From IMG/VR virus record IMGVR_UViG_3300050011_000298, positions 1 through 59,098 of that record: a DNA stretch of 59,098 nucleotides, one strand, 5' to 3'. Below are positions 4,637 through 52,620 of this stretch, piece by piece (within the stretch, counting starts at the first letter, position 1; each line of letters starts with the position of its first letter). A program made the position numbers and the translations under genes. The notes under the pieces were generated by a model. It did no database searches. It saw only the letters and a program-made list of their open reading frames with translations, and was not told the DNA's origin. The DNA is from a virus (Duplodnaviria; Caudoviricetes).

Positions 4637-5068
4637 ATGAGCGAATGGACTTATAGGCTGGCAGAAATTTCAGATTCATCTCTTTTCGTTGAGTGGGTGA
4701 AATCCAACCCCCTGGTGGACCCCGCAGACGTGCATCGCGCTATCGGCGGGGGTAATCCTGCCTGCCTCACGCTCGTAGCCTGCTTGGATGGGAATCCTGT
4801 CATGTTTGCACCCGTATACCCAACCTGGCATTTGGCCTGTCTATCGATATCGCCAACCACTTCGGCAGACGAGCGCAAGCAAGCCCTGAAGGGGCTGTTG
4901 GAGTTTGGCTGCGGCCTCGCCGTGCAGCAGAACATCCGAGAAATAAACACACTCACGCGCAGTTCTTATCCGATGAGCCATATTGCCGCGCGCCTAGGCT
5001 TTGAGCGCGATGACAGGGAACTATTCCGCTTCACGATACCCGCAAAGCAGCCCGAGTCATCAAAATAA
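4637..5068 (+). CDS. GNAT-fold protein (internal virion protein A-like position)
   Basis: C-terminal ARLGF motif; lies between tail and ejection-like genes. Confidence 0.5.
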   Translation: MSEWTYRLAEISDSSLFVEWVKSNPLVDPADVHRAIGGGNPACLTLVACLDGNPVMFAPVYPTWHLACLSISPTTSADERKQALKGLLEFGCGLAVQQNIREINTLTRSSYPMSHIAARLGFERDDRELFRFTIPAKQPESSK

Positions 5069-5087
5069 GACTATCCTTTCCATAAGT
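5068..5087 (+). promoter_or_regulatory. Putative phage late promoter WGACT-N8-CATAAGT (copy 1 of 12)
   Basis: AGACT atcctttc CATAAGT, 15 nt before ATG 5103. Confidence 0.8.
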
Positions 5088-5102
5088 GAGAGACCCTTGC
5101 TT

Positions 5103-5816
5103 ATGCGAATTACCACCAAAGCTGTCTATGATATAGAGACAGGACAACTTATCTTTTGGACGGGCTACGATTACGATGGCCCAGTCGCATTTTTTTGTTC
5201 TGGCGGGAAAGTCCAGCAGAATGACCAGGCACTCCAAGATGCAAATCTTGCAGCGAATACGAATTTCTTGAACGACGCGAAGACATCCTTCTCGGAGCAG
5301 CAAGCGATTCAAGCGAAGCAGACCTTGGTCGCGAATAACATGATTACGAATCCGATGGGATATACGCCTGCAGCATTGGCGATTCAGAGGACAGGCGTTA
5401 ATGAAAATTTTGCACGCGCCGCAAAAAATGCAATCGGCAGCGCAGCCGCAGCAGGCGCGCGATACGGCAGCGCGGATATTGGCGGCGGGCCGACGGGCGC
5501 GATGGCGGGGCAGATCGCCACAGAAGCATCTCTGGGAAAAGCAGGCGCTCTTTCCAGTATTGACGCCAACAACGAAGCGTTGAAGCGTGAGAACATGATG
5601 GCAGGGATACAGGAACTGAACCAGGCAGGCGGCGCGGCGCAAGGCGCAGTCGGCGGCAGTACCACAGGCGCAGGGACGACAGGCGGCGATACAGTGAACG
5701 CAGGTTCAGGTGTATTGGCTGCGAAGGAATCAGGCTATCAGGAATTTGGCAGCGTACTCGGTGCCGTCGGCGGCCTCGTCACCGCAGGCGCGGGTATTCC
5801 AGGCGTACACGTATAA
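5103..5816 (+). CDS. Putative internal virion/ejection protein
   Basis: Ala/Gly/Gln-rich helical composition; position in the tail-ejection cluster. Confidence 0.55.
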   Translation: MRITTKAVYDIETGQLIFWTGYDYDGPVAFFCSGGKVQQNDQALQDANLAANTNFLNDAKTSFSEQQAIQAKQTLVANNMITNPMGYTPAALAIQRTGVNENFARAAKNAIGSAAAAGARYGSADIGGGPTGAMAGQIATEASLGKAGALSSIDANNEALKRENMMAGIQELNQAGGAAQGAVGGSTTGAGTTGGDTVNAGSGVLAAKESGYQEFGSVLGAVGGLVTAGAGIPGVHV

Positions 5817-5829
5817 AAGGATTTTTATC

Positions 5830-6522
5830 ATGCCCGACACAGTGAACATAAAAAAGGATTATTCTGCTCTCAACGAACGTCTTGCAAAATTGTTCGATGA
5901 GTCGGGCGTGCGCAGAAGTTTTACAGTTCCGTATTTGCAAGGTCAGGAAGCAAAAGATCACATCGATGCGGTAGGTGTGGCGTCCTCACAGAATGGTGGT
6001 TTGGCGGGGAACCTTTTGACATCTCATCATACTGCGGAAGGGAAAGGTTACGGGTCGGGAGATGGATCGACAATCGGCCATCCCGCAGAAAAATTGCGGC
6101 AGACGATGATTCCAAAAGATGACAAAAACGCCCAGGCCGTGATCGATGCCGCTCAGAAGTGTGTGACGGACTTCAAATTCTTGCTGGGCGATGACGACCC
6201 GACTGTGCAGACGGCTCAGGGGCATCTAAATTTGGTCAAGAAAACTTTTGGGTCGGGCATGAGTTTACAGGATTTTGGTGTCCTGATGATTCAAATGATG
6301 AACAAACCTATGCAGGCTATCGCGCAAGCCCATTCTGGGACGAAAAAGGGCGGACATGCCGCTCACCTGCGCGGCCCTGAAGAGGAACAGGCTCAGGAAG
6401 CGCCAGAAACCGCCCAAGGCGGGGCGCAAGGCGACGAACAGGCGCCGACAGACCAATCAGCGGTTCCAGCGGCTCAGGCCGCTCCGCAGGCCGCGCCAGC
6501 GCCAGAACAGGCGCAAGGATAA
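5830..6522 (+). CDS. Hypothetical protein with a low-complexity Q/A/E tail
   Basis: AAGGA RBS then ATG 5830; co-oriented in operon. Confidence 0.6.
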   Translation: MPDTVNIKKDYSALNERLAKLFDESGVRRSFTVPYLQGQEAKDHIDAVGVASSQNGGLAGNLLTSHHTAEGKGYGSGDGSTIGHPAEKLRQTMIPKDDKNAQAVIDAAQKCVTDFKFLLGDDDPTVQTAQGHLNLVKKTFGSGMSLQDFGVLMIQMMNKPMQAIAQAHSGTKKGGHAAHLRGPEEEQAQEAPETAQGGAQGDEQAPTDQSAVPAAQAAPQAAPAPEQAQG

Positions 6523-6526
6523 GCAT

Positions 6527-8260: not shown

Positions 8261-8269
8261 GGACTTACC

Positions 8270-10329: not shown

Positions 10330-10374
10330 ATATTACAGGTGTTCCATATCCTCGGTCAATGGTACGAAGGTACT
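10330..10374 (-). promoter_or_regulatory. Sigma70-type promoter with upstream GTAC-N4-GTAC box
   Basis: Minus strand reads AGTACCTTCGTACC-A-TTGACC-18 nt-TAATAT. Confidence 0.7.
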
Positions 10375-10870
10375 AGAGAAGATTTGCGGAGTCTATCTTT
10401 CGCCATTCTCGAAGGATCGGAGCCAGTTCCATCATCCTAGCATATGAGATGTGGGCACCTTTGATGCGATTACAGGCACCACAACAAGGCACCACATTAT
10501 AGCAACGGTGCCCTTGGGAGTTATCCAGGGCGTCGAGACCAGACCCAAAGATGTTTAGTGTCCCTTGACAATAGTGGCAGGTTTGGTCAGCGACAAGAGC
10601 GCGATAAAACTGGAATCTCCACAGCAAATCATCAACAGGGACATTCTCTTTTTTAAGGATATGTCTTAGAACGTAGTGTTTGTTCTTTGGGGCGGAGTTG
10701 ATTGTTTTTTTGGTTTTCTGAGCCCTTGGTTTTTTGCTGTAATCTCTATTATACTCCCGAGTGTGGGGCACAACGCAGGGCGGGCAATACCTTTGGTTGG
10801 GGCCTAATCTAAGAAAACCTGTTTCGCATCGGATGCATCGAATCATCATAATAACGACCTCTTTTCGCAA
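10373..10870 (-). CDS. HNH endonuclease
   Basis: CHYC...GLDALDNSQGH..YNVVPCCGACNRIKG; own TTGACG-17-TACAAT promoter. Confidence 0.85.
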   Translation of the reverse strand: MRKEVVIMMIRCIRCETGFLRLGPNQRYCPPCVVPHTREYNRDYSKKPRAQKTKKTINSAPKNKHYVLRHILKKENVPVDDLLWRFQFYRALVADQTCHYCQGTLNIFGSGLDALDNSQGHRCYNVVPCCGACNRIKGAHISYARMMELAPILREWRKIDSANLL

Positions 10871-10924: not shown

Positions 10925-10944
10925 AGACTTCTTTTTCCATAAGT
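10925..10944 (+). promoter_or_regulatory. Putative late promoter (copy 2)
   Basis: AGACT tctttttc CATAAGT before ATG 10959. Confidence 0.8.
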
Positions 10945-10958: not shown

Positions 10959-11156
10959 ATGGAGAGGTCACCAATTTGCCCCAACTGTCTCTCAAAGAAC
11001 GAAGATATCCACGGGATGATCTATTCGGTTGGGCAAGTTGTCGGCGTACGCTGCAGCGATCTTTGGCATAAAGGTTGGATTTCTGACCCCGATAAGTGGG
11101 TTTTGACTGCCTACGACCAGGAATTTTTAGCAGAACAAAAAGTATCTGCAAGGTGA
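10959..11156 (+). CDS. Small Cys-containing hypothetical protein
   Basis: Follows the late motif with GAGG RBS; CPNC. Confidence 0.55.
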   Translation: MERSPICPNCLSKNEDIHGMIYSVGQVVGVRCSDLWHKGWISDPDKWVLTAYDQEFLAEQKVSAR

Positions 11157-11160
11157 TTTT

Positions 11161-11571
11161 ATGGCTGACCAAAACGGAAACGGAATAAACATCGGGTTGG
11201 AAGTTCTGGCGGAACGAATCGCCAACCTCGCGAAAAAATTGGACGAACAGGCTGCCTCCCAAAAAGAAGCCGTTGACGCCGCGCTTATTACATCTCAGAC
11301 CGCTATCACAGTCGCTTTGGCGACGCAGGAAAAAACCGTTAACGCGGCTTTCGCTGCTTCAGAAAAGGCGATTTCGAAGGCTGAAGAATCACAAAAAGAA
11401 TACAACAAAGCGATAGGCGCGCTTCAAAATGATGTGGTGAGTCTCAAGGAATCGCGCTCGCAGTCGAGCGGCAATTCGGGCGGAATTCAGGCCATGTATG
11501 GCTACATCTTTGGTTTTGTCGTGGCCGCTGCGGCTATTGCCGGGGTCGTGTTCACCGCGCTTCATAAGTAA
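11161..11571 (+). CDS. Coiled-coil protein with C-terminal TM helix (possible lysis accessory)
   Basis: Heptad-rich core; YGYIFGFVVAAAAIAGVVFTAL hydrophobic tail. Confidence 0.55.
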   Translation: MADQNGNGINIGLEVLAERIANLAKKLDEQAASQKEAVDAALITSQTAITVALATQEKTVNAAFAASEKAISKAEESQKEYNKAIGALQNDVVSLKESRSQSSGNSGGIQAMYGYIFGFVVAAAAIAGVVFTALHK

Positions 11572-11580
11572 AGGGGATTT

Positions 11581-11856
11581 ATGGCGAGCGATTTCGAACT
11601 TCAAGTCATGTCAGAATTATCGGAGATTAAAAGTCTCGCAACCTCGGCGGTCACGTCGTCGCAGGCGATGACTGAGCGGCTGTTTCATCCAGATTCTGGG
11701 GTGATTTCTACGTTGCAATCAGACATCACGGAAATTAAAGACGACCGCAAGACGGATGCGCGGTGGGAAAAAATACACAACGTCTTGCATTATTCTCTCA
11801 CTCCGATAGTGGTTGCGGTGCACGCGACGGCGAGACATCTGGGAATAGATATTTAA
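11581..11856 (+). CDS. Hypothetical protein (coiled coil plus hydrophobic C-terminus)
   Basis: AAGGGG RBS; operonic. Confidence 0.55.
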   Translation: MASDFELQVMSELSEIKSLATSAVTSSQAMTERLFHPDSGVISTLQSDITEIKDDRKTDARWEKIHNVLHYSLTPIVVAVHATARHLGIDI

Positions 11857-13931: not shown

Positions 13932-14560
13932 TTCCTGATACTACGCTGGCCGAGGACGGCTGTCAACTGTTTTCTGCGAAGTGCCTCTCGATGCCGTCCC
14001 TGTACTGTTTGCGTCGGGCGGGCTCAGCCTTCCCAGACTCTTGCGGGACGGTCTCGACGCGGTCTTGCCAACCCTCGACACGACCAGGAAGTTTCGGCGG
14101 GAACAGGAACGCCAGAACGCGCGCAACTACAGCAGACTGATTAATTTTATAACGCATATTAGCCTCTCATTTCGGGATGTGGCGCGCCGCGCGCGCCGTC
14201 TCCAGTACCATCGCTTGAATTCTATAACGCCAGCCCGCATCATCGGGTCCATCCTGCGTTGTCGTCTCGCCAGAGCGGTTGAAAGTCGGTTCCGCAATCG
14301 TTGACATACCCTCGCGGCGCCGCGTCTTCCTTCAGTCGTCGACGCAGGTCGATCAACACTGCGGTGAAAAATCGATCAAACCGTTGCTGTTTGGTTTCCA
14401 TATGATCCTTTCGTTTTTCCGAATAGCGGAGTGCGTTGTCCACAGACAGGACATCTCAGCGGTGCCTCGGCGGCAAGCAACTCCATCTTCGGTTGTCCGC
14501 TGCAGATGAATCCAACACAATTACGGTGGACGGCTGTCACTTCATGTGCGAATGTTACGG

Positions 14561-15270: not shown

Positions 15271-15300
15271 TTGACAAGCAGTACGGAGGGTTGGTACTAT
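15271..15300 (+). promoter_or_regulatory. Sigma70 promoter of the tmRNA gene
   Basis: TTGACA-18 nt-TACTAT. Confidence 0.75.
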
Positions 15301-15304: not shown

Positions 15305-15750
15305 GTGTCACGAAAGTGACTGGTGGAGGACGAAATGGTTCCAGCGAGCGCGCTTGTCGAATGAAGACTATCCCGAGGACTGCAGCCAAGGGATGTGCTC
15401 GGTGTTCGAAAGACGCGCTCGCTGGGGCCGTTCCGCCCCAAAATTACGACCGTAAAACGGCTGGGGCTACTCATTTGGACGGGGCTGCAAAGCCCCCAGG
15501 TCCACCCTGCCGTCCAGCACGGATGTTCGGATGCCCAAAGGGCCGACGATCTAACCACTGGGCGGTACGGTGGGCCTGAATTAGTTTCGACAGATGAGAA
15601 TAGTGACAGTGCTTGTTCGGTTCGTCCTGACAACGACGTAAAACTAGATCAAACCTAAATGCGAAAACTAAACTCGCACAGGTTGTGATGTTCGCCAGTC
15701 GCACAAACGTGGCTTCGGCCCGACGTTTGGCAATGGCAGCATAACCACCG
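15305..15750 (+). ncRNA. ssrA: Circularly permuted (two-piece) tmRNA
   Basis: Acceptor piece ends GGAC-GGGGC-TGCAAA-GCCCC-CAGGTCC-A-CC (15477-15506), upstream of the coding piece starting GGGCCTG-AATTAGTTTCGAC (15572). The 7-bp acceptor stem has G3.U70; P2 pairs CAGATGAG/CTCATTTG; pk1-like pseudoknot; TAAAT|GCG resume site at 15661; tag AKTKLAQVVMFASRTNVASARRLAMAA-stop (15744). Outer ends are approximate. Confidence 0.88.
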
Positions 15751-15790
15751 CCCGAGGTCGCCCGAAAGGTGGCCTCGGGATTCTAATTTT
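15751..15790 (+). terminator. Hairpin/terminator after tmRNA
   Basis: CCCGAGGTCGCC-CGAA-AGGTGGCCTCGGG followed by ATTCTAATTTT. Confidence 0.6.
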
Positions 15791-20343: not shown

Positions 20344-20365
20344 TTGCGTTGCCTCCATGTAAATC

Positions 20366-20409: not shown

Positions 20410-20444
20410 GGGGCCAGGCAAACTGAACCTGACCCCGTACTTGA

Positions 20445-22007: not shown

Positions 22008-22367
22008 ATGAACGATCAATGTAATTTTTGCGGCAGTTTCGAAGATATTCTGCCCTGTTCCCATTGTCTGCGGGATAGCTGCAAGCGGTGCCAATTAAAT
22101 CACGCGCCTTTTTGCGAGCAGGTACAGAAGAGCATTCAGCGCGGCGAAGGTCCGACCGTTGCGAACGCTGGTCTGCCTGAACATCGGGCAGGGCATGTAG
22201 CCCCGCCGTTCACGCCTGCCGACCGTCCGTTTATGGTCAGTTCGCGAATCGTCGAGTCTACGCTGATCCAGATTCCTTCGGCGGCGCCCGTTGAGTGGGA
22301 AACGCAGGTCATTTCGCCGACAGACGTGGGGCTGCTGGCCGTCGAAGATTTGCTAGGCGAAGAGTAA
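22008..22367 (+). CDS. Cys-rich zinc-finger hypothetical protein
   Basis: GAGGAG RBS; CNFC, CSHC, CKRC. Confidence 0.55.
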   Translation: MNDQCNFCGSFEDILPCSHCLRDSCKRCQLNHAPFCEQVQKSIQRGEGPTVANAGLPEHRAGHVAPPFTPADRPFMVSSRIVESTLIQIPSAAPVEWETQVISPTDVGLLAVEDLLGEE

Positions 22368-22386
22368 GACTTCCTATTCCATAAGT
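22367..22386 (+). promoter_or_regulatory. Putative late promoter (copy 3)
   Basis: AGACT tcctattc CATAAGT before GTG 22399. Confidence 0.8.
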
Positions 22387-25201: not shown

Positions 25202-25221
25202 AGACTTTTTAATCCATAAGT
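25202..25221 (+). promoter_or_regulatory. Putative late promoter (copy 4)
   Basis: AGACT ttttaatc CATAAGT. Confidence 0.75.
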
Positions 25222-32197: not shown

Positions 32198-32217
32198 TGA
32201 CTTTCCATTTCATAAGT
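32198..32217 (+). promoter_or_regulatory. Putative late promoter (copy 5)
   Basis: TGACT ttccattt CATAAGT. Confidence 0.75.
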
Positions 32218-37665: not shown

Positions 37666-37685
37666 AGACTTTCAATTCCATAAGT
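37666..37685 (+). promoter_or_regulatory. Putative late promoter (copy 6)
   Basis: AGACT ttcaattc CATAAGT. Confidence 0.8.
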
Positions 37686-42380: not shown

Positions 42381-42394
42381 TCTCAGGAGAAGAT

Positions 42395-42646
42395 ATGCTT
42401 ATCGAAATTATTCTCGTCGGCACCGCAGTATTGTCCGTGGTGAACTTCATTCGGGGCTTCAAAACAGGTACGCCTGGGCCCCAAGGTCCTGCAGGTCCTG
42501 CGGGCTCGCAAGGCGTGCCAGGACCCCAAGCAGCGCATCAGTTGGGCGCGGAACACGCTCTGTGTGGTGGATGCGGGAGAGTAGTCGCGCACTTCAGCCT
42601 AACCCCGAAAGGGTTACGTTGCGCAAACTGCGCCCCAGCGGAATAA
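42395..42646 (+). CDS. TM, collagen-like and zinc-ribbon mini-protein
   Basis: N-terminal TM; GTPGPQGPAGPAGSQGVPGPQ; CGGC...CANC. Confidence 0.7.
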   Translation: MLIEIILVGTAVLSVVNFIRGFKTGTPGPQGPAGPAGSQGVPGPQAAHQLGAEHALCGGCGRVVAHFSLTPKGLRCANCAPAE

Positions 42647-42665
42647 GACTATCCTTTCCATAAGT
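42646..42665 (+). promoter_or_regulatory. Putative late promoter (copy 7)
   Basis: AGACT atcctttc CATAAGT. Confidence 0.8.
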
Positions 42666-43948: not shown

Positions 43949-43968
43949 TGACTTTCTTTTCCATAAGT
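43949..43968 (+). promoter_or_regulatory. Putative late promoter (copy 8)
   Basis: TGACT ttcttttc CATAAGT. Confidence 0.8.
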
Positions 43969-43983: not shown

Positions 43984-44715
43984 ATGTTCATCTACGTCAT
44001 AGTTTGCAGCGAGACCCTGAAGATTTACGTCGGGCAACACAAGGGAACCAATCTGCAGAAATATTTGCAGACCAAGTTCTCAAACGCGAAGAGAAACTCA
44101 GGGACGCGGTCTCACCTTTTTGCGGCAATGAAAAAACACCCTCACGAATCGTGGAGCATTCATCCACTTATCTCAGGCGTTGAAATCAGACAAGAACTGG
44201 ATGAACTAGAAAAGCATTTCATCCGAGCGTTGAACGCACAACATCCCGATGTCGGTTATAACATCTGTGACGGCGGCGAAGGTTTCACGGGACCCCATAC
44301 AGAGAAGTGGCGACAAGAAACACTCACGCGAGTCAATGAGTATTGGGCAAATCCCGATAGTCGGATGCAGCGAAGCCAACAAACTACAGAACGCTGGCAA
44401 AGCGGCGAGCTACGAAAGGCGCACGAGATTTGGCGAGCAGAGAATCCAGAAAAGTTGGCATATTGGACGGATAAAAAACAGTCCGCCGAGTCCAACCAAA
44501 AACGCAGCGAGCAACAGAAAATATCTATGTTAGGGAACACGAACAGGCTTGGGCAAAAGCAGTCGCCTGAAGAAATAGCCAAGCGGGTCGCCAAATTGAA
44601 AGGTGTCCCGTTTTCCGACGAGCGCAAAGCCAAACTGAAAGCGTCGCACCAGACTTGCTCTTGTCCCGCGCATGTGCTGAAGCGTCAACAACAAGACTTC
44701 TTAACCCATAAGTAG
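43984..44715 (+). CDS. GIY-YIG homing endonuclease with NUMOD3-like repeats
   Basis: FIY......KIYVGQ...E..FI.......GYN...GG; KQSAES..K.S. Confidence 0.88.
   Translation: MFIYVIVCSETLKIYVGQHKGTNLQKYLQTKFSNAKRNSGTRSHLFAAMKKHPHESWSIHPLISGVEIRQELDELEKHFIRALNAQHPDVGYNICDGGEGFTGPHTEKWRQETLTRVNEYWANPDSRMQRSQQTTERWQSGELRKAHEIWRAENPEKLAYWTDKKQSAESNQKRSEQQKISMLGNTNRLGQKQSPEEIAKRVAKLKGVPFSDERKAKLKASHQTCSCPAHVLKRQQQDFLTHK
44694..44713 (+). promoter_or_regulatory. Putative late promoter (copy 9)
   Basis: AGACT tcttaacc CATAAGT overlapping the end of the GIY-YIG gene. Confidence 0.75.
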
Positions 44716-44726
44716 GGAGACATAAA

Positions 44727-45638
44727 GTGGTAATCGGCGGAACAGAGATCGTAACCTCGTGGCTTCGAGGTGGTAGCGGAGGAGGCGGCGTCTCGTCTAT
44801 CAACACGCTCACTGGTGCGATTACGCTCGCAGCGGGAACAGGCATCACGCTGACTCCGTCTGGAAATACAATCACCATCGCATCGTTTGGAACCATCGCG
44901 GGAAGTATCGCGGGTACGCAGGTGGCTTTTGGAGTTGGTGCGAATACCATAGGCGGCACCAATAATTTTACTTACAATTCCGCGACGGGGGATATAACAT
45001 TAACCGCCCCTTCAGGGTCTGAACGACTCACCTTAGTACCTTCTACTGGCACAGGTTTTCAAACTCGACTCTTAGCAAATACTGACGGGTCTTATCAAAT
45101 TCTCCCTGCCGCAGCGGGAATTCCTACTATAACTGGTAATGCTGCAGGTGTGCTCATTTCCGCATCCACCACCGCCGCCACTGAAATTGTACTGTTTGGT
45201 TCCACAAGCGGCTCAGCGGCAGTGGGAGTAGCCGCTGTTGCGGGAAGTCCGAATCGTATCAATCTTCCTATCATAACAGGAACTGTTGGTCAAGTTCTTA
45301 CAACCGATGGCGGAAGTCCACAGCAAACTAGCTGGACAACCCCTAGCGGCGGTGTGTCCTTAATCGCCAACGGCACCGCTGCTCTTGGGACAACATCCAT
45401 TGCCACGCTTTCTTCTGCGGCAGTTGTTACCGTCGCCGCCTCGGGAGTTCTGACTACGGATTCAATTATCTGGGCGTTCAATGCAGCCCCCAGCACAGGT
45501 TATAGCGGTATCGCGACATCAGGACTTTTTGTTCTAGCATATGTATCGGCAGGCAATGTGAATTTCTTAGTAATCAACCCCACCGCTGGCGGTATAGTGC
45601 CGCCCGCAGCCACTTTAAATTGGCGTGTAGTTCGATAA
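44727..45638 (+). CDS. Tail-fibre-like protein
   Basis: VSSINTLTGAITL.AG.GI; GQVLTTDG.....SW. Confidence 0.7.
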   Translation: MVIGGTEIVTSWLRGGSGGGGVSSINTLTGAITLAAGTGITLTPSGNTITIASFGTIAGSIAGTQVAFGVGANTIGGTNNFTYNSATGDITLTAPSGSERLTLVPSTGTGFQTRLLANTDGSYQILPAAAGIPTITGNAAGVLISASTTAATEIVLFGSTSGSAAVGVAAVAGSPNRINLPIITGTVGQVLTTDGGSPQQTSWTTPSGGVSLIANGTAALGTTSIATLSSAAVVTVAASGVLTTDSIIWAFNAAPSTGYSGIATSGLFVLAYVSAGNVNFLVINPTAGGIVPPAATLNWRVVR

Positions 45639-45651
45639 TTCGTAAGGAAGG

Positions 45652-47586
45652 GTGAGCAGACCCGTGGAAGCAGAATTCAAAATCGACCCAATTCTCCTTG
45701 AAAATTACCGCAAGTCTATAGACTTGTCTGTATTCCCTCGGCAGTTTGTGAAGCAGTTTGAATCGATCACAGACGAAGAGCGCACCGAATGGTTCGAGGG
45801 CAGATTTCGCTGCCTGAAGTATCACCTTTATCTTAGCGGGTTCGCGGAAGCCAGGAAAACTGGCGACCCCGACTTGCCGAAAGAATTCGTTCCAATTCTC
45901 GGAATGGATTTTCAGCCCGACCCGCATGCTCGCCTCTTCGCCTGTTTTCTGCAGAAGCGCCCCGGCGAGAATCTTGTCCTGACCGACTTGGACCAGCTTA
46001 CCAAGAAGAGAATGATTCTGTGGCCGCGCGGTCTTTTCAAAACCTCGGCGGTCAGGGTTGACATCATCCAGACGATTCTGAATTATCCTGATGTTCGCAT
46101 ATGCTTTCTGACGGGCAGCGATAAACTCGCGAAGATACAACTAGCAGCCATCAAGAAATTCTTTGAGAGACCTACTGGCCGATTCAAATGGCTCTTTCCC
46201 GAATTTTGTTTGAAGGATGTGCGGAATAAAAAAATCAAGGAATTCGACGATGAGGGTGTTCCCGACCCGCGCGCCTGGACATCTGAACTTTGCAGAATGG
46301 GTAACGCGCATGAGTTCACTGTCCCATGCCGTACGAATGATATTTTGGCTGAGCCGACGTTTGTCATCTCCACCACCCGCACCACTAAGGCAGGTTCCCA
46401 CTACGACCTGATTTATGTGGACGACCTTGTGAACGAAACCAACTACCGAAAAATCGACGCGCTGGAAAAAAGTTACGACAGCTATATCGATATCTGCCCG
46501 ATTCTGGAGCCCTTCGGATTCATGGTGATAACGGGAACCCGCTACTCCTTCGGCGACACCTACGAGCGCATTCAGGAGGACGCTCAAAAGGAAATGAAGG
46601 AGATGGGGCAGACCATCTGGAAGTTTTTCATTCGCGATTGCTGGAGTCACGGCTGTCAAAATTGCGCTCACACCGACGTGTACCACGACTTCGATGTGAA
46701 CATCGTGCAGCCGCCCTGCACTGTGCCAGGCTGCCAGTGCCCTGGGTTCAAAGACCGAGGAAATAAAGACGTACTGTTCACCGCGACTCGTACTCGCACA
46801 GGCCGTGCAATCGGCCATACGTTAAAGTTACTCGCCCAGAAACTGATTGAATCGAGCCCTGAGTTTTTCGCGAACCAGTATGAGAACAAACCCATCGCGA
46901 CGGGCGCGCAGACGTTTGATGAAACTCTGATCGGGCGGCAAACAATGCATTCGATGGAGCAGATTCCGCCATACAGTTCGGGATTCACTTTTGTGGTGGG
47001 GGACCTTGCGTATATAGGGCAAGCGGGAAAAGACTATTCCGTCCTGTTCATCTGCCGTTTGTTCAAAGGACAAATTTTCGTCTACGCCTGCGAATTTGGG
47101 AACTGGGATTCTGGACAGGTCGCAGAAAATATCGTCAACGTCCTGTTGGTCCATCGTCCGAATGTCATCTTCCTTGAGAAGATGAACGGCTGGGAACCTA
47201 TGGAGCGCATTATCGCCGCGCACGCATCCTCCCGAGGAGTCGTAAAGGTTCCAATTCAATGGGAAAAAGGCTCTCAGGCCGCAAACGCCAAGCTGATTCG
47301 TATTGGGGCCGTTAAGGGTCCTCTCTCGGCACGGCGGCTGTGGTTCTTTGCGGGCATGAAAGGGTATGACCAACTCGTCCAGCAACTGTTGAAGTGGCCC
47401 AAGTCAGGAAAACATGACGATTTTGCGGACTGCGCGGGGATGGTTGTAGAGGCTCCGACGGGATATCAGTTGGAGAACCCGCCTGTCGCGGTCTCTGTCG
47501 CCAACTGGTTACGGAAATTGAGCGTGGAGCAGATACCAGAAGACCAGTACTACGATAACGGCGGGGGAACGGGCTTGTGCATGTAA
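45652..47586 (+). CDS. terL: Terminase large subunit
   Basis: Walker A-like PRGLFKTS, Walker B G.HYDLIYVDD, GTRY coupling motif, F.NQY.N.P, VGDLA, KHDDFAD nuclease motifs. Confidence 0.95.
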   Translation: MSRPVEAEFKIDPILLENYRKSIDLSVFPRQFVKQFESITDEERTEWFEGRFRCLKYHLYLSGFAEARKTGDPDLPKEFVPILGMDFQPDPHARLFACFLQKRPGENLVLTDLDQLTKKRMILWPRGLFKTSAVRVDIIQTILNYPDVRICFLTGSDKLAKIQLAAIKKFFERPTGRFKWLFPEFCLKDVRNKKIKEFDDEGVPDPRAWTSELCRMGNAHEFTVPCRTNDILAEPTFVISTTRTTKAGSHYDLIYVDDLVNETNYRKIDALEKSYDSYIDICPILEPFGFMVITGTRYSFGDTYERIQEDAQKEMKEMGQTIWKFFIRDCWSHGCQNCAHTDVYHDFDVNIVQPPCTVPGCQCPGFKDRGNKDVLFTATRTRTGRAIGHTLKLLAQKLIESSPEFFANQYENKPIATGAQTFDETLIGRQTMHSMEQIPPYSSGFTFVVGDLAYIGQAGKDYSVLFICRLFKGQIFVYACEFGNWDSGQVAENIVNVLLVHRPNVIFLEKMNGWEPMERIIAAHASSRGVVKVPIQWEKGSQAANAKLIRIGAVKGPLSARRLWFFAGMKGYDQLVQQLLKWPKSGKHDDFADCAGMVVEAPTGYQLENPPVAVSVANWLRKLSVEQIPEDQYYDNGGGTGLCM

Positions 47587-47599
47587 CCCTTGCACTTTA

Positions 47600-47619
47600 A
47601 GACTTCTTTTCTCATAAGT
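47600..47619 (+). promoter_or_regulatory. Putative late promoter (copy 10)
   Basis: AGACT tcttttct CATAAGT before the portal ATG. Confidence 0.8.
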
Positions 47620-47630
47620 AGAGAGCATTT

Positions 47631-49871
47631 ATGCCTGAAGATACTAAAACTGCGCTTACGAAAACGTCGCATTTTCTCGACGAAGGGCAAATTCGCCTCC
47701 TTGATTTGCCTGGAGCGGTGCCGTACGGCGAAACCGCGCTTCCGATAGGGCCGACAGAGGTCGCGTTTCAGGACCAACTGCGATCCGACCTCTCGATGAT
47801 GAAGGAAGCAAACCTCAACCGCGAGGAGTCCGAATCTTTTATCTCTACCCGAGGGCTGATTGGCCGATGGAACACCGCCGAACTGATGCTTCGTGCGTGG
47901 GTGGATCCCGTCAAGTGGAAAGGCAGCGACCAGTATCGTTCTCACCTTGGCGTACCGCTTGTCGCCGAACAATTTTACAGCATTCACAGCGTCGTCAATC
48001 AGACTTTGCTCGGGGGATATCAATCATTCAAGATTGACGCGACTTCTGGCACCCCGATGGAATGCGCCGAAGCACAGCAAGCGATTGTGACCGCGCAATT
48101 AAAGACATGCGGATTCAAAGGCGTCTCCTGCAAGACTGAAATGCGGGAAATTACATACGACGGACTGTTCTATGGGTTCGGCATCGCGCATTATGGATGG
48201 AAGACGCAGAAAAAGAACATCATCAAGAAAGTGCAGAAGTCTCATCCTGAAACCGTCGTCGTCAACGGTATCGCCGTCAGCATTCCTGTTGAGGATGAGG
48301 ATGATGTCGAAGATAAAGTCGTCGGAATTCAAGAAGTCAATATGCCTGTGCTGGAGCATGTGCCAGTTCGTCGCGCGCGCTATGCGCCTGACCTGCGCCG
48401 TGGCGACCCGCGCGTTGCAGAATGGTTCGGGCGCCTGATATATCCAACTGGATATGACTTGGATGCGTTGAGGAACACGGAAGGCTGGAATATTCCGTCG
48501 CGCGCGGACCTCGTGAAGTTGATGGCGCCGCAAATGCAGAGTACGGTATCATCAAACCCGCTGGAAACGCAAAACTCAAACACTGGGAACGTCATCCTCC
48601 AACAATCTACGACCCCACAGAAGGCGATACTGGAAACTCAGACCGAGCGCCTTCAAGCCGACCCGCTCGCGCGCAAATTTGAATGCTTTGACTACTGGAC
48701 AGGCTCGCGGCACTGCATTATTCTTGGAAAAGAGTATCCAATCTTGAACGAAACGCATAATTTTGGCCGCGTTCCGTTTTTGGGGTTCTGTTTCCGCAAC
48801 GCGCCTGACTCCGCGCACGGATACGGCATCGCATATTGGCTGACGGACTTCCAACGCATCTGCCAAGGCGTCATCAACGCCTTTTTGGACGATCTGAACC
48901 TTAATTTGATGGGAACATACACGTCGCCCGCTGGCGCGAACAACTCAGCGCAGAATCAGTGGATTTTCCCAGGAAAAATCTTCAAATCCGACCCGCAAGG
49001 CGACATTAAACCGCTCACGCGCAACTCTGTCGCCGCGCAAGAGCCTTTGGCGATCATCGCGCAGATGAAAGCATGGGCATCGTCGATTACTGGCGCAGGA
49101 CCAAGCACAATGGGTGGCGGTTCGGGCCCTGCAGGCGCAATGCGCACACCCGACGGCGCAGCGGCGGTCACGGGCGGCGAAAATGTGAAATTACAGGACC
49201 TGATCGATGTTATTTCCGAACAGGTGTTCGTTCCGTTCATTGAATTCTGTATTGAGCAAAATCAGAAGCTGAAGCCGTCGCAGATTCGTATGTTGCTGTC
49301 CGATGCGCTTGGCAGCGCGTTCAAAGCGACTCCGCTGAGCATCATCAACGGCACATATCGTGTCGATATCTCCGCAGGCACCAAACTTGCGGCGCGCGAA
49401 GTCCTAAATAAATACATGGGCATCCTGCAGACATTCTTGAGTTCGCCTGGGACGGTAGAGAACCTCGCTGTCCAGGCGATGAAGCTGGACTACAACGCAA
49501 TGTTCTCCGCGCTGTACGATTCCTTCGGCGTGCCATACAAGGAAAAGGTTATCGTTCCGATGGATGATTCCGACAAACAACGCCTGGCGGCGAACACCAA
49601 GGCCGCGCAAGCGCAAGGAAAGATTGCAGGCATTCAGGCGCAGGGCGAAGTGAAGAAAGATGTGGACAACAACCAGAGCGAGAATCGTATGCTTATCGAA
49701 ACAGGTAAGCACACGCTGAACACAGCGGCGGGCGCAGCAGACCACCAGAACAATTTGGAGTTGCAAGAGAAAGCTGCCGCCGCTAAAGCGCAAGAGGCTA
49801 CGCCCCAAGCCAAAGGCTTGAGTCGCGCGGCGACGGGCGCGTTCGCAACGATGGATAGAACAGCATTCTAA
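47631..49871 (+). CDS. Portal protein
   Basis: Follows terL; DGLFYGFG, PF.......PDS.HG.GI...L.DFQ...N...D pattern of podovirus-type portals. Confidence 0.85.
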   Translation: MPEDTKTALTKTSHFLDEGQIRLLDLPGAVPYGETALPIGPTEVAFQDQLRSDLSMMKEANLNREESESFISTRGLIGRWNTAELMLRAWVDPVKWKGSDQYRSHLGVPLVAEQFYSIHSVVNQTLLGGYQSFKIDATSGTPMECAEAQQAIVTAQLKTCGFKGVSCKTEMREITYDGLFYGFGIAHYGWKTQKKNIIKKVQKSHPETVVVNGIAVSIPVEDEDDVEDKVVGIQEVNMPVLEHVPVRRARYAPDLRRGDPRVAEWFGRLIYPTGYDLDALRNTEGWNIPSRADLVKLMAPQMQSTVSSNPLETQNSNTGNVILQQSTTPQKAILETQTERLQADPLARKFECFDYWTGSRHCIILGKEYPILNETHNFGRVPFLGFCFRNAPDSAHGYGIAYWLTDFQRICQGVINAFLDDLNLNLMGTYTSPAGANNSAQNQWIFPGKIFKSDPQGDIKPLTRNSVAAQEPLAIIAQMKAWASSITGAGPSTMGGGSGPAGAMRTPDGAAAVTGGENVKLQDLIDVISEQVFVPFIEFCIEQNQKLKPSQIRMLLSDALGSAFKATPLSIINGTYRVDISAGTKLAAREVLNKYMGILQTFLSSPGTVENLAVQAMKLDYNAMFSALYDSFGVPYKEKVIVPMDDSDKQRLAANTKAAQAQGKIAGIQAQGEVKKDVDNNQSENRMLIETGKHTLNTAAGAADHQNNLELQEKAAAAKAQEATPQAKGLSRAATGAFATMDRTAF

Positions 49872-49889
49872 TTTTGAACGGAGCATAAA

Positions 49890-50285
49890 ATGAGCGCAAC
49901 ATTTGAGCCAATATCCACACCTGCAATTGAACGCGCGCAGCGTTTGATGAGCGTCAGGGCGAACCAAGGTTTTCGGGATATCATTCAAATCTCCCTTGAA
50001 ATTGTAAACTCTCTGACCGCCATTGCGACAGATTATCCAGGCTGGGATAAAGACCAGTTGATGGTGTTGAATGTGCGCGCGAAAACGGCCAAAGAGCATC
50101 ATGAACTTCTCTTCGCCAGAATCCAAGACGCGATTCGCACAGGCGTACAGGAACAAGCCGCGCATACCAATCTAACCGACAAGTCCGTTACGGAAGTTCT
50201 TGAGACTGGGGATTTCGTCCGTCAAGAAGTCCTGACGCGGTTCAGTGAGATGGATTTTGATGGGCGCCTCCCTGGGACGTACTGA
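49890..50285 (+). CDS. Hypothetical protein between portal and scaffold
   Basis: GGAG RBS; helical. Confidence 0.7.
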   Translation: MSATFEPISTPAIERAQRLMSVRANQGFRDIIQISLEIVNSLTAIATDYPGWDKDQLMVLNVRAKTAKEHHELLFARIQDAIRTGVQEQAAHTNLTDKSVTEVLETGDFVRQEVLTRFSEMDFDGRLPGTY

Positions 50286-50305
50286 TGAAATCTTATTACA
50301 GTTTT

Positions 50306-50325
50306 AGACTTTCTAATTCATAAGT
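50306..50325 (+). promoter_or_regulatory. Putative late promoter (copy 11)
   Basis: AGACT ttctaatt CATAAGT then GAGGAG. Confidence 0.8.
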
Positions 50326-50339
50326 AGAGGAGTATTCCA

Positions 50340-51449
50340 ATGAGCACGAACGACGAAATTCTCGTATTACCTGAAGTCGCCATGACCGACGAGTTGGCTG
50401 CTGCTATTCAAGCGGCAGTGAGCAGCGCCGACGTTCGGGGGCTGTTGCTGGCAGAGGCCGAGAAGCAGTTGGCCATCCGCACCGAACATGACCAAGCGCA
50501 AGCTGACGCTACGCAGGCTGCAGCGGACAAGGTTGCTGCTGATGCCGCTGCGGCTGCCGAAATCGCAAGAGCCAATCAGACGTTCACGCGAGATGAAGTC
50601 ATCGGCGGAAAAACCTTTCACTTCGAATCATCCACCGAAGGTGAACTTGACCGTCAAATTCTCAACGCCTACAAGGTGGCCTATAATGTTCAGCAGCCCG
50701 TCGCGCCCGTCGCCGTAGTCGACCCAGCCATTGCGATCCAAGCGGCTGAAGCGGCAGCGATTGCCCGAACGGAACTGGAACGGAAGTTTCGAGGTGGCGA
50801 AGTTACCGCCGCCGATTACATTGAGCAAACTGGCGCGCTGGATGAATATCTCGTGAAGCGAGGGATTAACCCTACCGCGTTGAAAGAGATCGTGGACGAA
50901 AATGCCACAACCAAAGCACTCGCAGTTTCGCACCGCTCGTGGGAGGTCGCGTCAGAAACTTTCCGCAATACAGTAGGCGCCGACTGGCCAGGCGGCGAGC
51001 GAAATCGCGAACTGCTTGGCGATAAACTCGCGGCGTTGGGTCTCATTGATGCGGAAGATAAAGTCGCGGCGATGGGGCAAGCATGGGCGGCCATGAAGAA
51101 ATCGCATTCTTATTTTCCGCACGGCGATGCGGATGCTCCGACTCCAGTGGCTGCTGCTGCTGTGGCTGACCCCGTTGTAGCGGCTGCTGCAGTGGCGCAG
51201 CCTGCGGTAGAAGCTGTTCGCGCTGCGGCGGCTGCAAAAGTTCGCTCGATGTCATCTTCACTTTTCGGCCAAAGTTCTGGCACCAGCAGCGCGCCTGTAG
51301 TGAATCCAGCGGTTGTCGCGGCCAGTAAACTGGTTCCCGACAACGCAACTCCTGCAGAGATTTTGCAGGCATGGAAAGATACTCAGGTCGCCAACGGCGT
51401 TGACCCCAACGCTGCGTTCACTAATCAGTTCCGCGCAAAAGCAATGTAA
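50340..51449 (+). CDS. Putative capsid scaffolding protein
   Basis: Acidic, Ala-rich helical protein between portal and capsid. Confidence 0.65.
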   Translation: MSTNDEILVLPEVAMTDELAAAIQAAVSSADVRGLLLAEAEKQLAIRTEHDQAQADATQAAADKVAADAAAAAEIARANQTFTRDEVIGGKTFHFESSTEGELDRQILNAYKVAYNVQQPVAPVAVVDPAIAIQAAEAAAIARTELERKFRGGEVTAADYIEQTGALDEYLVKRGINPTALKEIVDENATTKALAVSHRSWEVASETFRNTVGADWPGGERNRELLGDKLAALGLIDAEDKVAAMGQAWAAMKKSHSYFPHGDADAPTPVAAAAVADPVVAAAAVAQPAVEAVRAAAAAKVRSMSSSLFGQSSGTSSAPVVNPAVVAASKLVPDNATPAEILQAWKDTQVANGVDPNAAFTNQFRAKAM

Positions 51450-51542
51450 GAATTGGGTATTATATAGATGACTCCCCTGCGGTAAGTGCTAGAAAACACA
51501 GGGGTGTTTAACAAAGTGAAGATATTTACAGGAGGATTAAAT

Positions 51543-51785
51543 ATGGAAACTTTTGAACAATGGTGGGATCGGGCGGGAGAAAGAATGAACCCCGATGGTG
51601 CCAAAGGGCTTGCGGAATGCGCCTTTAATTCTGCCTTAAATCAATCTCGGAACTATATCGCAGACGAAGAAACGATGCCAGAGAAAATCACGTTTGCGAA
51701 TGGTCGCGTGGTTTGGATCGCTGACAATAAGACTATAGGCGTTCACCACGGTGTGTTTCTTGAGGTAGGACAACTTCCCGAATGA
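51543..51785 (+). CDS. Passenger hypothetical protein (METFEQWW...)
   Basis: AGGAGG RBS. Confidence 0.7.
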   Translation: METFEQWWDRAGERMNPDGAKGLAECAFNSALNQSRNYIADEETMPEKITFANGRVVWIADNKTIGVHHGVFLEVGQLPE

Positions 51786-51802
51786 TTTGAAAGGAGATAC
51801 AG

Positions 51803-52009
51803 ATGGTTTTAGGCGGAAAAGTCTGGAATACACTCGACCGTGACGACAGGAAGGCGCTGCTCGTGGCGACATATCCGAATCGCTCGCAGAGCATTGTCAA
51901 ACTCGAATCAAAACGCCAATGGAATGACCTACTCCAGTCAACGCAAAAAGATTTGTTGGATGTTGATTGGTCTATGGTTTTAGATCGCGATGTCCGCCCC
52001 GATGATTGA
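51803..52009 (+). CDS. Passenger hypothetical protein
   Basis: AAGGAG RBS; stop abuts the right TIR. Confidence 0.7.
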   Translation: MVLGGKVWNTLDRDDRKALLVATYPNRSQSIVKLESKRQWNDLLQSTQKDLLDVDWSMVLDRDVRPDD

Positions 52010-52169
52010 GGGAGTCAACTATATAATCCCCTAAGAATTCACTTGACGTTATCAAGGACGTGCTGTATTATCAAGTCGTGGGTCTTGATCGGACTCATGT
52101 TAGCCGGGCACCGAGAGCGGCCTCGAACCGCTCTCAGCCCAGGTCTTTCCTTTCTAGGAGGAGACGAAG

Positions 52170-52595
52170 ATGGAACGCCAATTTCGAGTACCCCGAATTC
52201 GAAAATCCACACCAGCACAACTCGCAGGACGAGCACGTTATGCTGCAAAACACCCTGAAAGAATTAAAGCGCGACGCCTCGCAGGTGCTGAAAAACTCAA
52301 GGTTTATTGTAAACAGCGCCGAAATGATATCCGCATTGAAGTTTTAACCCGCTACAGCCCTAACGGGGTTTTATGCTGTGCGTGGGATGGATGTCTCGTA
52401 GATGACATTGATATGCTGGTTTTAGACCATATCGACGATACGGGAGCGGAAGAACGACGAGCCCTAGGTGGCAGAAACGCCCGAGGCTGGAATTTTTACC
52501 TCTACCTTATTCAACGAGAATTTCCTTCAGGATATCAGACCCTTTGCTGCAACCACAACCACAAAAAAGAACTTATCCGCAGTCGCAAATCCTAG
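52170..52595 (+). CDS. HNH-type homing endonuclease
   Basis: CAWDGC......LVLDHI.D.G...FP.GYQTLCCNHN..K; TTGACG-17-TATTAT promoter at 52043-52071. Confidence 0.8.
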   Translation: MERQFRVPRIRKSTPAQLAGRARYAAKHPERIKARRLAGAEKLKVYCKQRRNDIRIEVLTRYSPNGVLCCAWDGCLVDDIDMLVLDHIDDTGAEERRALGGRNARGWNFYLYLIQREFPSGYQTLCCNHNHKKELIRSRKS

Positions 52596-52600
52596 GTTTT

Positions 52601-52620
52601 AGACTATCCTTTCCATAAGT
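52601..52620 (+). promoter_or_regulatory. Putative late promoter (copy 12), capsid gene
   Basis: AGACT atcctttc CATAAGT. Confidence 0.8.

Follow-up and report, generated by a model that had tools for sequence, protein, structure and literature searches.

The stretch of DNA analysed (the window) is the entire IMG/VR record IMGVR_UViG_3300050011_000298, a 59,098-bp fragment of a tailed phage genome (Caudoviricetes) that lacks a terminal repeat and has open reading frames (ORFs) running off both ends, and it contained twelve copies of a two-box motif, WGACT-N8-CATAAGT. The motif mainly preceded morphogenesis genes and was found on a single strand across a family of 96-100 kb uncultivated phages. 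On these sequence features, an even chance is given to the reading that the motif is a family-specific late promoter, used by the host RNA polymerase together with a phage factor. A candidate for that factor was found in a phage protein that fuses a helix-turn-helix (HTH) domain, resembling sigma region 4 or the antiterminator Q, to a NusG-like module. That this fusion protein reads the motif, whether as promoter factor or as loading factor, is proposed tentatively and with a likelihood put slightly short of even. By analogy, the element would belong with the class-specific late promoters of phages, a kind of signal already known.

Scanning of the window returned 12 matches to WGACT-N8-CATAAGT, all on the plus strand, and none in 100 dinucleotide-preserving shuffles. 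Each of the twelve copies listed by an earlier reading of the letters (the sequence-only reading) was recovered as an exact match at its position. CATAAGT alone occurred 18 times against 3.82 ± 2.15 expected, with 15 occurrences on the plus strand (12 within the full motif) and 3 on the minus strand. The spacer, described earlier as invariant and pyrimidine-rich, was indeed 8 nt long in 12/12 copies, and its 96 letters comprised 56 T, 27 C, 13 A and no G (86% pyrimidine). The conserved block extended to ~30 bp, beyond the 20 nt first noted, and took the form wwtA-AGACT-(8 nt, no G)-CATAAGT-purine run. The 5' flank was A or T at positions -3 to 0, position 1 was A in 10/12 copies and T in the others, GACT and CATAAGT were invariant, and positions 21-25 were A or G in 57 of 60 letters. 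Three copies (5068, 42646 and 52601) had identical 20-mers. A position weight matrix (PWM) built from the 12 sites in a 44-nt frame and run over both strands scored the sites at 37-49 bits, and no other position on either strand of the window exceeded 8 bits, so the class has a sharp boundary, with no degenerate or minus strand copies.

The copies lay at gene boundaries, as had been claimed. Greedy ORF calls covered 92% of the window, and 9/12 copies overlapped the called ORFs by no more than 3 nt; copies 5068 and 32198 were flagged as overlapping solely through over-long TTG/GTG ORF calls, and one copy (44694) fell in the last 7 codons of a GIY-YIG ORF. The earlier statement that the copies precede portal, scaffold, capsid, fibre and ejection genes held in part. 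Family matches confirmed the portal, the major head protein and the terminase operon, and tail-fibre/virion-protein-like matches were found in the cluster 3' of copy 37666, while the scaffold was assigned by position only and no ejection gene was identified in the window. The ORF clusters at 10.9, 22.4, 25.2 and 32.2 kb, which the same reading had marked as late, would be late only if the promoter reading is right. The coordinates of all copies and neighbouring features are shown in Table 1.

The motif was then followed in five relatives (G001-G005), estimated by CheckV to be 97-100% complete. With one mismatch or fewer allowed, GACT-N8-CATAAGT gave forward/reverse counts of 16/0 in G001, 1/11 in G002, 8/0 in G003, 4/0 in G004 and 1/0 in G005, compared with 0-2 per strand for a reversed-pattern control in the same genomes. 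A GACT-anchored PWM, refined per genome and applied to the window and the five relatives with one threshold for both strands, returned 15, 20, 16, 2, 13 and 12 sites per genome (G004 being under-seeded); all 78 lay on a single strand of their genome, with none on the other. A motif search in relatives had been named beforehand as a check, and the strand distribution it gave was not random. GACT was invariant in the family, and the second half drifted by lineage from CATAAGT to TATAGGT. The window and G001 had CATAAGT as second box, G002 had CATAAGT or CATAGAT, G003 showed a mixture, and G005 had TATAGGT, TATAATT or TATTAGT.

The same pattern was seen at one locus over a wider range. IMG/VR contains 45 loci for the large terminase (TerL) of this family, with 44-99% identity and contigs reaching 96-100 kb. 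At the terminase-portal junction of most of these loci (TerL ~54-99% identity), the element stood directly 3' of the terminase stop, with GACTTTT fixed, a variable second box (CATAAGT, CTTATGT, CGTATGT, CTTAAGT, TTTAATT, TATAGAC and others) and then a purine run; at that junction in the six most distant loci (TerL 44-48% identity), the element was not found. Exact matches to AGACT-N8-CATAAGTAG numbered 107 in IMG/VR, and among the 80 listed only five contigs had two or more matches. Four of these contigs were in the TerL family list and the fifth carried the gene of the fusion protein. Among the papers listed by a search of the open-access literature on phage promoters, none contained CATAAGT.

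Gene starts followed the sites closely. A same-strand ORF of at least 50 amino acids started within 200 nt downstream of 77/78 sites, and at 41/78 the start lay 9-17 nt past the motif, with the purine run at the Shine-Dalgarno (SD) position; other leaders measured 20-143 nt. The sites in G001 preceded the head protein, the portal, the scaffold-position gene, the terminase operon, adaptor and tail genes, a long fibre gene and a few others, and its replication block (11-23 kb) had zero sites. The purine run was kept even where no start codon follows, as at the head protein with its 143-nt leader and at sites in G001, which is what an initially transcribed region would show. In addition, the first paired base of the folded leader fell at motif positions 19-23 in 20 of the 29 long-leader sites, a count taken with no matched control.

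The geometry of the motif fitted neither of the usual bacterial promoter types, and the earlier claim to that effect stands. The boxes were 8 bp apart in all copies, compared with 17 ± 1 bp between -35 and -10 in sigma70 promoters, and a sigma70 consensus scan picked up 0/12 copies. In a sigma70 -10 hexamer, positions 2 and 6 are A and T, and CATAAG ends in G. A start 6-8 nt past the second box would fall after the purine run, which is the SD in 41/78 sites, and would cut the SD off. No GG and GC pair with the GG-N10-GC spacing of sigma54 promoters (-24/-12) was present in the conserved columns.

Ordinary promoters were found as a separate set. The scan used TTGACA-17-TAnnnT with at least 10/12 matches, and it gave 27 sites in 1-20 kb against 12.5 ± 3.3 expected, with no enrichment in the other two thirds of the window. 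Such sites stood before early-type genes (Table 1), which suggests that the host reads ordinary promoters and that the WGACT motif is a distinct class. From the sequence, the motif thus appears as a second, phage-specific class beside the sigma70-like promoters. The minus strand cluster at 9.7-21.8 kb looks early on the same grounds.

A further element with a GTAC box, GTACYTTCGKWCYATTG, was present 5 times in the window against 0.09 expected, always on the minus strand. The TTG of GTACYTTCGKWCYATTG opens the -35 of a sigma70-like promoter with 17-bp spacing, and a conserved SD, CATGGAGG, follows. The element was kept in all five relatives, mostly on the opposite strand to the late motif. The GTAC box may be an operator in its own right, because one copy in G001 and G002 adjoins the SD of the lysozyme gene and leaves no room for a -10. 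Another repeated unit was seen among the sigma70-like sites, namely a cassette present twice on the plus strand (79% identical) that consists of a hairpin, GGGA-N14-TCCC, followed by the TTGAC of a sigma70-like -35. It precedes an endonuclease VII gene and an ORF inserted before the motif of the head-protein gene, and a similar hairpin occurs on the minus strand. This cassette looks like a mobile terminator-promoter unit.

As reader of the motif, a phage sigma factor, activator or RNA polymerase had been suggested. No phage polymerase and no sigma region 2 were found in the searches that follow, and one candidate was obtained, the fusion protein. Pfam and PHROG scans of the 128 window ORFs showed no RNA polymerase family, nor did those of the extra part of G001 (30 ORFs by Pfam and 21 by PHROG). 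The single-subunit RNA polymerase family PF00940 had 0/5 hits in the complete relatives and was silent in the control genomes too, so this blank is not proof. Sigma region 2 (Sigma70_r2, PF04542) was likewise absent from the five complete relatives, with controls positive in 10/14. Sigma, gp55, gp33 or clamp families had no match in the scans of the window and G001, which very divergent minimal sigmas could escape. The DxDxD triad was absent from all unknown G001 ORFs of at least 300 amino acids, and among G001 ORFs of that length it was present in the head protein, the DNA polymerase and an Erf-like protein only. A 1917-amino-acid protein of G001, considered as a possible polymerase, matched DUF7178 only, had no PDB sequence match below E 0.5 and reached Atlas scores of 0.78 at most, again for DUF7178.

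These blanks bear on the idea that the motif is a promoter read by a phage polymerase or sigma-like subunit that escaped detection, be it a divergent single-subunit enzyme, a gp55-like minimal sigma or the 1917-amino-acid protein. The order of blocks recalls T7-type promoters with a purine start (promoter regions as given in 10.1101/619395), the TATAGG variant of G005 being closest, and most ORFs had no family match. The GACT box, however, lies 8 nt from the TATA-like box and so 5 bp further away than in T7, where the distance is 3 nt, and the spacer is of the pyrimidine type. The last nine letters of the motif resemble the yeast mitochondrial promoter ATATAAGTA (10.1101/619395), a likeness that is a lead only. 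With no polymerase family, sigma region 2 or DxDxD triad in the ORFs scanned, an undetected enzyme of this kind is considered improbable.

The fusion protein was the sole recognisable transcription protein found in the window and the relatives. Its gene is the second of an operon in the early-looking cluster on the strand opposite to the motif, and each of the 5 complete relatives encodes the protein, with 56-69% identity. At least 145 homologues were found, and among those listed the long contigs reach ~97-107 kb; the gene was taken together with its flanks at 7 loci. An AlphaFold model made from 28 sequences had a mean predicted local distance difference test (pLDDT) score of 81. In this model, residues ~245-412 form a NusG/RfaH-like NGN-KOW module, and Foldseek placed it with NusG, Spt5 and RfaH chains (E 1.2e-5 to 7.5e-4, probability 1.0), as did VIA (Z 8.0-8.8). 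A profile search against PDB gave KOW rows at E 0.0013-0.07, the Pfam KOW match was below cut-off (13.5 vs 22.3 bits), and phmmer of the protein against PDB returned nothing below E 0.5.

Residues 54-120 were aligned by VIA to sigma region 4 of extracytoplasmic function (ECF) and other sigma factors (Z 9.2-9.7, root-mean-square deviation 1.0-2.5 Å over 57-65 residues). Sigma region 4 filled 12 of the top 13 VIA rows with the full model and with a separate model of residues 40-245 alike, and this part is predicted, with moderate confidence, to be a sigma-region-4/Q-like HTH. Its recognition helix was invariant in the 28 sequences, as GACT is in the DNA. Residues ~120-220 form a second helical domain, in which stand-alone homologues gave weak HTH matches. 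Atlas rows for the protein were sigma-4-domain phage proteins at 0.75-0.77, under the counting level, and serve as a lead only. The architecture is not that of a plain NusG, since ~220 extra N-terminal residues carry the sigma-4-like HTH and the helical domain.

A profile search of the fusion protein against 1.8 billion representatives gave three groups of matches. The first comprised full-length fusion proteins, the second many proteins of ~240-300 amino acids that match the N-terminal half only, and the third many proteins that start with NGN-KOW and have other C-terminal extensions, one of them with HTH domains. Split versions in viral contigs were not found with a single-protein query, and an alignment query returned 14 NGN-KOW genes in viral contigs of 30-313 kb, an N-terminal-half ORF lying directly upstream of the NGN-KOW ORF at 1/14 loci. 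The cultured Tunturiibacter jumbo phage Tunturi_5 (309 kb, an Acidobacteria phage) encodes an NGN-KOW protein, gp25, annotated as a transcription antiterminator. By sequence, HTH and NusG-like modules appear to be a recurring phage pairing, split or in reverse order (NGN-KOW, then HTH) in other phages. No description of a phage sigma-4/NusG fusion was found in the open-access literature.

The proposed sequence of events is as follows. Early genes, largely on the opposite strand, would be read by the host holoenzyme from -35/-10 promoters, and one early product would be the 421-amino-acid fusion of a sigma-region-4/Q-like HTH with a NusG-like NGN-KOW module. This factor would steer the host core polymerase to the ~30-bp wwtA-AGACT-N8-CATAAGT-RRRRR sites. 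The HTH part would read the invariant, -35-like GACT box on duplex DNA, while the NGN part would sit on the beta' clamp helices, the usual seat of sigma region 2, beside the second box, which is centred on TA and lies about one helical turn further downstream. Transcripts would start at the 3' edge of the motif, at about positions 18-22, so the mRNA would open with the purine run, which in most sites would be the SD of a gene starting 9-17 nt later. On RNA polymerase, the NGN domain of NusG occupies the site that sigma also uses, and an NGN is able to read non-template DNA (PMC7819879); a protein with both a sigma-4-like part and an NGN could for that reason be a specificity subunit. An HTH tethered beside the NGN would also explain the short 8-bp spacing. 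In its strongest form, the proposal makes the fusion protein a NusG-derived sigma substitute, in which NGN replaces region 2 and tandem sigma-4-like HTHs read a promoter compressed to an 8-bp spacer, with later service as antiterminator and ribosome coupler; this form is speculative and unlikely as it stands. We infer, more broadly, a transcription start at the motif, the use of host polymerase, the role of the fusion protein as reader and the assignment of its domains to the two boxes as described.

Because the candidate reader combines a sigma-4/Q-like HTH with a NusG-like module, the alternative raised in the sequence-only reading, antitermination from a loading site, is a serious rival. 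Under this alternative the motif is a loading or pause site and transcription comes from upstream host-type promoters. The fusion protein would bind GACT on the duplex behind the transcription bubble, read the -10-like YATAAGT and dock its NGN on the elongating polymerase, as a single-polypeptide blend of the mechanisms of Q (Q-binding element, QBE, and pause element) and of RfaH at ops. The outcome would be a pause- and terminator-resistant polymerase, and the KOW domain may couple it to a ribosome on the start codon that follows within a few nt. The Q protein 21Q, which has a sigma-R4-like fold, is described as binding DNA beside a -10-like pause element and joining the polymerase (PMC6606751), as the proposed reader would at its short site. 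For sigma-4 on the flap, an 8-bp spacing would be a poorer fit than for an HTH tethered at the upstream fork. Moreover, JGI labels some homologues of the fusion protein "antitermination factor NusG", in line with the annotation of gp25 in Tunturi_5.

Several results weigh against a promoter read by this protein, and some of them speak for loading instead. Both halves of the fusion resemble elongation or antitermination factors (NusG/RfaH for the C-terminal half, Q for the other) and neither resembles the DNA-melting sigma region 2. To our knowledge, no NusG-family protein is known as an initiation factor. Some N-terminal-half homologues reached the Pfam cut-off for Sigma70_r4_2 (25.9 vs 25.7 bits) or for Phage_antitermQ (26.9 vs 26), and Foldseek on the N-terminal model had a best E of 0.85 despite sigma-4 rows with probability 0.87-0.97. 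A sigma70-like plus strand promoter lay upstream of 5/12 copies, at 450-650 bp for four sites and ~2.4 kb for 37666, as would suit a loading site. The four small ORFs between these promoters and the copies were mutually unrelated. Terminator-like hairpins directly upstream of the motif were found at 2/78 sites vs 42/2400 random positions, which is no enrichment, and a strict hairpin scan placed a stem start at positions 19-26 in only 11/78 sites. A search for RNA runs with window positions 44000-53990 listed none, all 21 runs being DNA from peat or permafrost metagenomes. The choice of the fusion protein as reader is itself based on elimination and on co-occurrence in one lineage.

On the other side, the number and placing of the sites are awkward for loading. 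Each genome has 12-20 copies, often every 1-3 kb inside one operon, but for Q and RfaH a single site in each operon is enough. Loading by Q is promoter-proximal, whereas no promoter-like element was seen in the 12 aligned upstream nt, and none with 9/12 or more matches stood directly before most copies. The 10925 copy has no plausible upstream plus strand promoter (no sigma70-like site of at least 10/12) and is the only plus strand signal before the gene island that follows it. The hairpins after the motif were mostly without U-tracts, with no evident terminator to overcome. The promoter reading is therefore favoured, given the many sharp copies before individual late genes, the kept purine run, the stem-loops at the 3' edge, the 10925 site and a strand layout shared with phiEco32-like phages, and the loading-site alternative is the main rival and is regarded as unlikely.

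A signal acting in RNA was also weighed, either a processing site or a translational operator directly before the SD. The motif is strand-specific and lies directly 5' of the SD in 41/78 sites, and stem-loops right after it would protect a processed 5' end. The pyrimidine spacer (positions 6-13) is partly complementary to the purine run or SD (positions 21-26), and a perfect stem of at least 5 bp starting at motif positions 4-10 was found in 10/78 family sites; the spacer could thus act as an anti-SD. Such pairing could mask the SD in read-through transcripts, as happens in some T4 late genes. Against a role in RNA, ~30 unstructured, high-information nucleotides with two boxes at fixed spacing are typical of a protein-DNA site, while known RNase sites are low-information or structured. 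Folding of the motif itself showed no conserved hairpin, no RNA-binding or RNase family turned up in the family scans of the window ORFs, and the 10925 site would need 1.2 kb of antisense read-through to be transcribed. An RNA-level role is accordingly placed lowest, as very improbable; this role and an undetected phage enzyme are both less supported than a promoter used by the host polymerase.

Compared with known systems, the motif shares features with several and departs in one or more respects from each of those considered, namely sigma70, sigma54, T7-type (for which no cognate enzyme was found) and phage-sigma-dependent promoters, Q sites and ops. Promoters of the T7 group, which span ~23 bp from -17 to +6, also come as numerous near-identical copies, all on the same strand and upstream of late genes, each a long high-information block seemingly reaching up to and past the start. 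An A/T-rich stretch, GACT, a TATA-like box and a purine-rich sequence, initial in T7 and putatively so in the motif, come in the same order (over ~30 bp and at another spacing in the motif), and in the motif, too, 5' stem-loops would form from the first transcribed bases. A T7-like polymerase gene, unlike in the T7 group, was not found in the five complete relatives, with the limit on that blank given above.

The phiEco32-like phages offer a parallel in layout. Their middle and early genes lie opposite the late cluster, a phage-encoded specificity subunit serves the late promoters, and host core polymerase with the phage sigma reads tAATGTAtA (phi32_gp36) or, in phage 7-11, GTAAtg-16-aCTA (gp47), as described in PMC8948821. 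Shared with the window phage are an early/middle strand opposite the late one, early promoters of the host sigma70 type, late genes headed at conserved positions by a phage-specific motif that drifts between relatives, and, for the candidate here, a reader made from the opposite-strand early/middle cluster. The window motif differs by its 8-bp spacer, its conservation up to the SD and its consensus. The phiEco32-like start lies 6-9 bp past the element, unlike the likely start at the window motif, and no sigma region 2 protein was found here, the candidate reader having a NusG-like module instead.

The analogy to T4 gp55 late promoters, also drawn earlier, holds in logic and fails in sequence, geometry and likely start position. 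T4 late promoters have TATAAATA at -10 and use gp55, gp33 and gp45. Like the motif, they are compact A/T-rich elements with no normal -35 that recur many times ahead of structural genes, and the host polymerase is re-targeted by phage proteins, as proposed here. Homing-endonuclease genes lie among the late genes in both phages. The motif differs from the T4 element in sequence and in its second invariant box, GACT, at fixed spacing; the scans of the window and G001 gave no match to gp55, gp33 or a clamp, and the likely start is at the element, compared with 6-7 nt beyond it in T4.

Sites of lambdoid Q proteins, made up of a QBE and a sigma-dependent pause element, are single and lie in one late promoter; they depend on sigma70 being retained at the pause, and Q acts at the RNA exit channel. 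The window phage, on the contrary, has 12-20 sites with no abutting sigma70 promoter (12 copies in 59 kb) and a NusG-like module in the candidate protein, although stand-alone homologues of its N-terminal half touch Phage_antitermQ. RfaH is an NGN-KOW factor, as the fusion protein is by Foldseek and VIA, but has no HTH domains. The ops signal, like the motif, occurs on one strand in front of the controlled genes. The ops element lies in the transcribed leader, usually once per operon, and the motif, with 12-20 copies per genome, does not match the ops consensus. RfaH targets typically have no SD, whereas motif targets have one. An NGN can read non-template DNA sequence-specifically at the site of sigma on the polymerase (PMC7819879), as the NGN of the fusion protein could.

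The window also contained further genes and features of this phage (Table 1). It encodes the large terminase, a portal matching the Pfam SU10_portal family and a major head protein, together with many HNH, endonuclease VII and GIY-YIG genes and a lytic transglycosylase. SU10 is a phiEco32-like phage. A megablast of positions 45000-54000 gave no near relative among GenBank phages, and TerL and the head protein had partial matches only, at 26-30% identity. Metagenomes from peat and permafrost contain DNA of the window phage. The window runs collinear with the relative G001 (96,667 bp), from ~44.8 kb round to ~6.6 kb, and the part of G001 beyond the window encodes the 1917-amino-acid protein, RecA, MazG, DNA polymerase, SSB, a UvrD helicase with a putative intein, a nuclease, a primase-helicase, lysozyme and further structural genes. 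The intein is suggested by Hint/intein-like matches in the UvrD-like helicase (L154:927-3293).

A GroEL-like chaperonin ORF (PHROG 5725, E 2.8e-115) was 68% identical in G001. Its use for host inference was uninformative, as the best match among 185,579 species genomes had only 39% identity. Weak host hints were given by the two cultured-phage matches, both Tunturiibacter (Acidobacteriota) phages, and by the permuted type of the transfer-messenger RNA (tmRNA). This two-piece tmRNA scored 76.5 bits with Rfam RF04321 against a gathering threshold of 47, ARAGORN agreed, and a sigma70-like promoter and a strong terminator flank it. A plus strand tRNA cluster held five genes by Rfam and four by ARAGORN (Pro-TGG, Gly-TCC, Trp-CCA and Thr-TGT).

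At least nine homing-endonuclease-like ORFs of the HNH, endonuclease VII and GIY-YIG types were present. Several were among late genes, each with its own sigma70-like promoter or motif copy, and one of the nine (52170-52595) had no family match and was counted by the string CCNHNH in its translation alone. A transposase ORF of the IS1595 family (DDE_Tnp_IS1595, E 4.8e-42, plus a zinc ribbon) was found in this lytic-looking genome and had no G001 homologue. The early-looking cluster includes a pentapeptide-repeat protein (Pfam E 1.3e-55) with a C-terminal DUF5758 and 28 tandem 15-nt units in its repeats. The large 5'-open ORF at the left end has an Ice-binding-like domain (E 1e-29) and probably encodes a tail fibre or spike; its product is 70% identical to a 1464-amino-acid G001 protein that itself lies 3' of a motif copy.

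Table 1. Positions of the motif copies and other features in the window
Feature	Position	Strand	Context
Motif copy	5068..5087	+	First base shared with TAA stop of ORF 4637-5068; next start codon (5103) 15 nt past motif
Motif copy	10925..10944	+	Divergent intergenic region, before small + gene island 10959-11856 flanked by - genes
Motif copy	22367..22386	+	Follows ORF 21948-22367 (own sigma70-like promoter at 21854-21881); at the equivalent G001 junction GACT-N8 is kept and the second half diverged
Motif copy	25202..25221	+	After HNH endonuclease ORF 24402-25016; before run of small unknown ORFs
Motif copy	32198..32217	+	34-nt leader; stem-loop begins at motif position 20
Motif copy	37666..37685	+	Head of long + strand morphogenesis region, 37.7-55 kb
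Motif copy	42646..42665	+	After collagen-like/tail-fibre-like ORF 42374-42646
Motif copy	43949..43968	+	Before GIY-YIG homing-endonuclease ORF 43984-44715
Motif copy	44694..44713	+	At end of GIY-YIG ORF; before 303-aa ORF and large terminase
Motif copy	47600..47619	+	Between large terminase and portal
Motif copy	50306..50325	+	Before 369-aa ORF (50340-51449) between portal and head protein; scaffold by position only
Motif copy	52601..52620	+	Before major head protein
Tail-fibre/virion-protein-like matches	41508-42646		Cluster 3' of copy 37666
Terminase operon	44727-47586
Large terminase	45652-47586
Portal, SU10 type	47631-49871
Major head protein	52764-53684
Fusion protein, candidate motif reader, 421 aa	12280..13545	-	ORF open from 13620, homologues start near 13545; operon 13931-11798
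Sigma70-like promoter	13938..13966	-	TTGACA-17-TAGTAT; upstream of operon 13931-11798; consensus match only
Sigma70-like promoter	10908-10880	-	Beside copy 10925; serves - strand gene
Sigma70-like promoter	15271-15300	+	Before tmRNA
Sigma70-like sites	21.7-21.9 kb		Both sides of divergent junction
Sigma70-like sites	30182, 53704		Before endonuclease genes
Sigma70-like site	35234	+	Before GroEL-like gene
GTACYTTCGKWCYATTG copies	10357-10373, 17591-17607, 20392-20408, 23801-23817, 24326-24342	-	GTAC-box element
Hairpin-TTGAC cassettes	30148-30186, 52009-52047	+
Hairpin similar to that of the cassette	28531-28554	-
Homing-endonuclease-like ORFs	4019-4594(-), 10373-10870(-), 18296-18724(-), 24402-25016, 30235-30645, 43984-44715, 52170-52595, 53752-54219, 56866-57468
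tmRNA, permuted, two-piece	15448-15744	+
Terminator	15751-15779		After tmRNA
tRNA cluster	55564-56234	+
GroEL-like chaperonin ORF	35296-36882	+
IS1595-family transposase ORF	29108-30025	+
Pentapeptide-repeat protein	19483-20421	-	Repeats 19726-20345
Large 5'-open ORF	3-3545	+	Ice-binding-like domain

Class-specific promoters time the genes of lytic phages, and new classes have usually revealed new ways of re-programming RNA polymerase. The present motif class is conserved in a widespread family of uncultivated peat and permafrost phages in which no phage polymerase or sigma was found. It is useful for annotating late operons in ~100-kb metagenomic phage genomes with mostly unknown proteins. 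If the motif and the fusion protein belong together, recognition of a DNA site would be linked directly to the universal elongation-factor site on the polymerase, and the 30-bp site with one protein would be a portable pair for in vitro work. Should the sigma-substitute form prove true, the fusion protein would be the first NusG-family initiation factor, and the family would show initiation without sigma region 2, by which a phage would commandeer the host polymerase in a manner not seen before.

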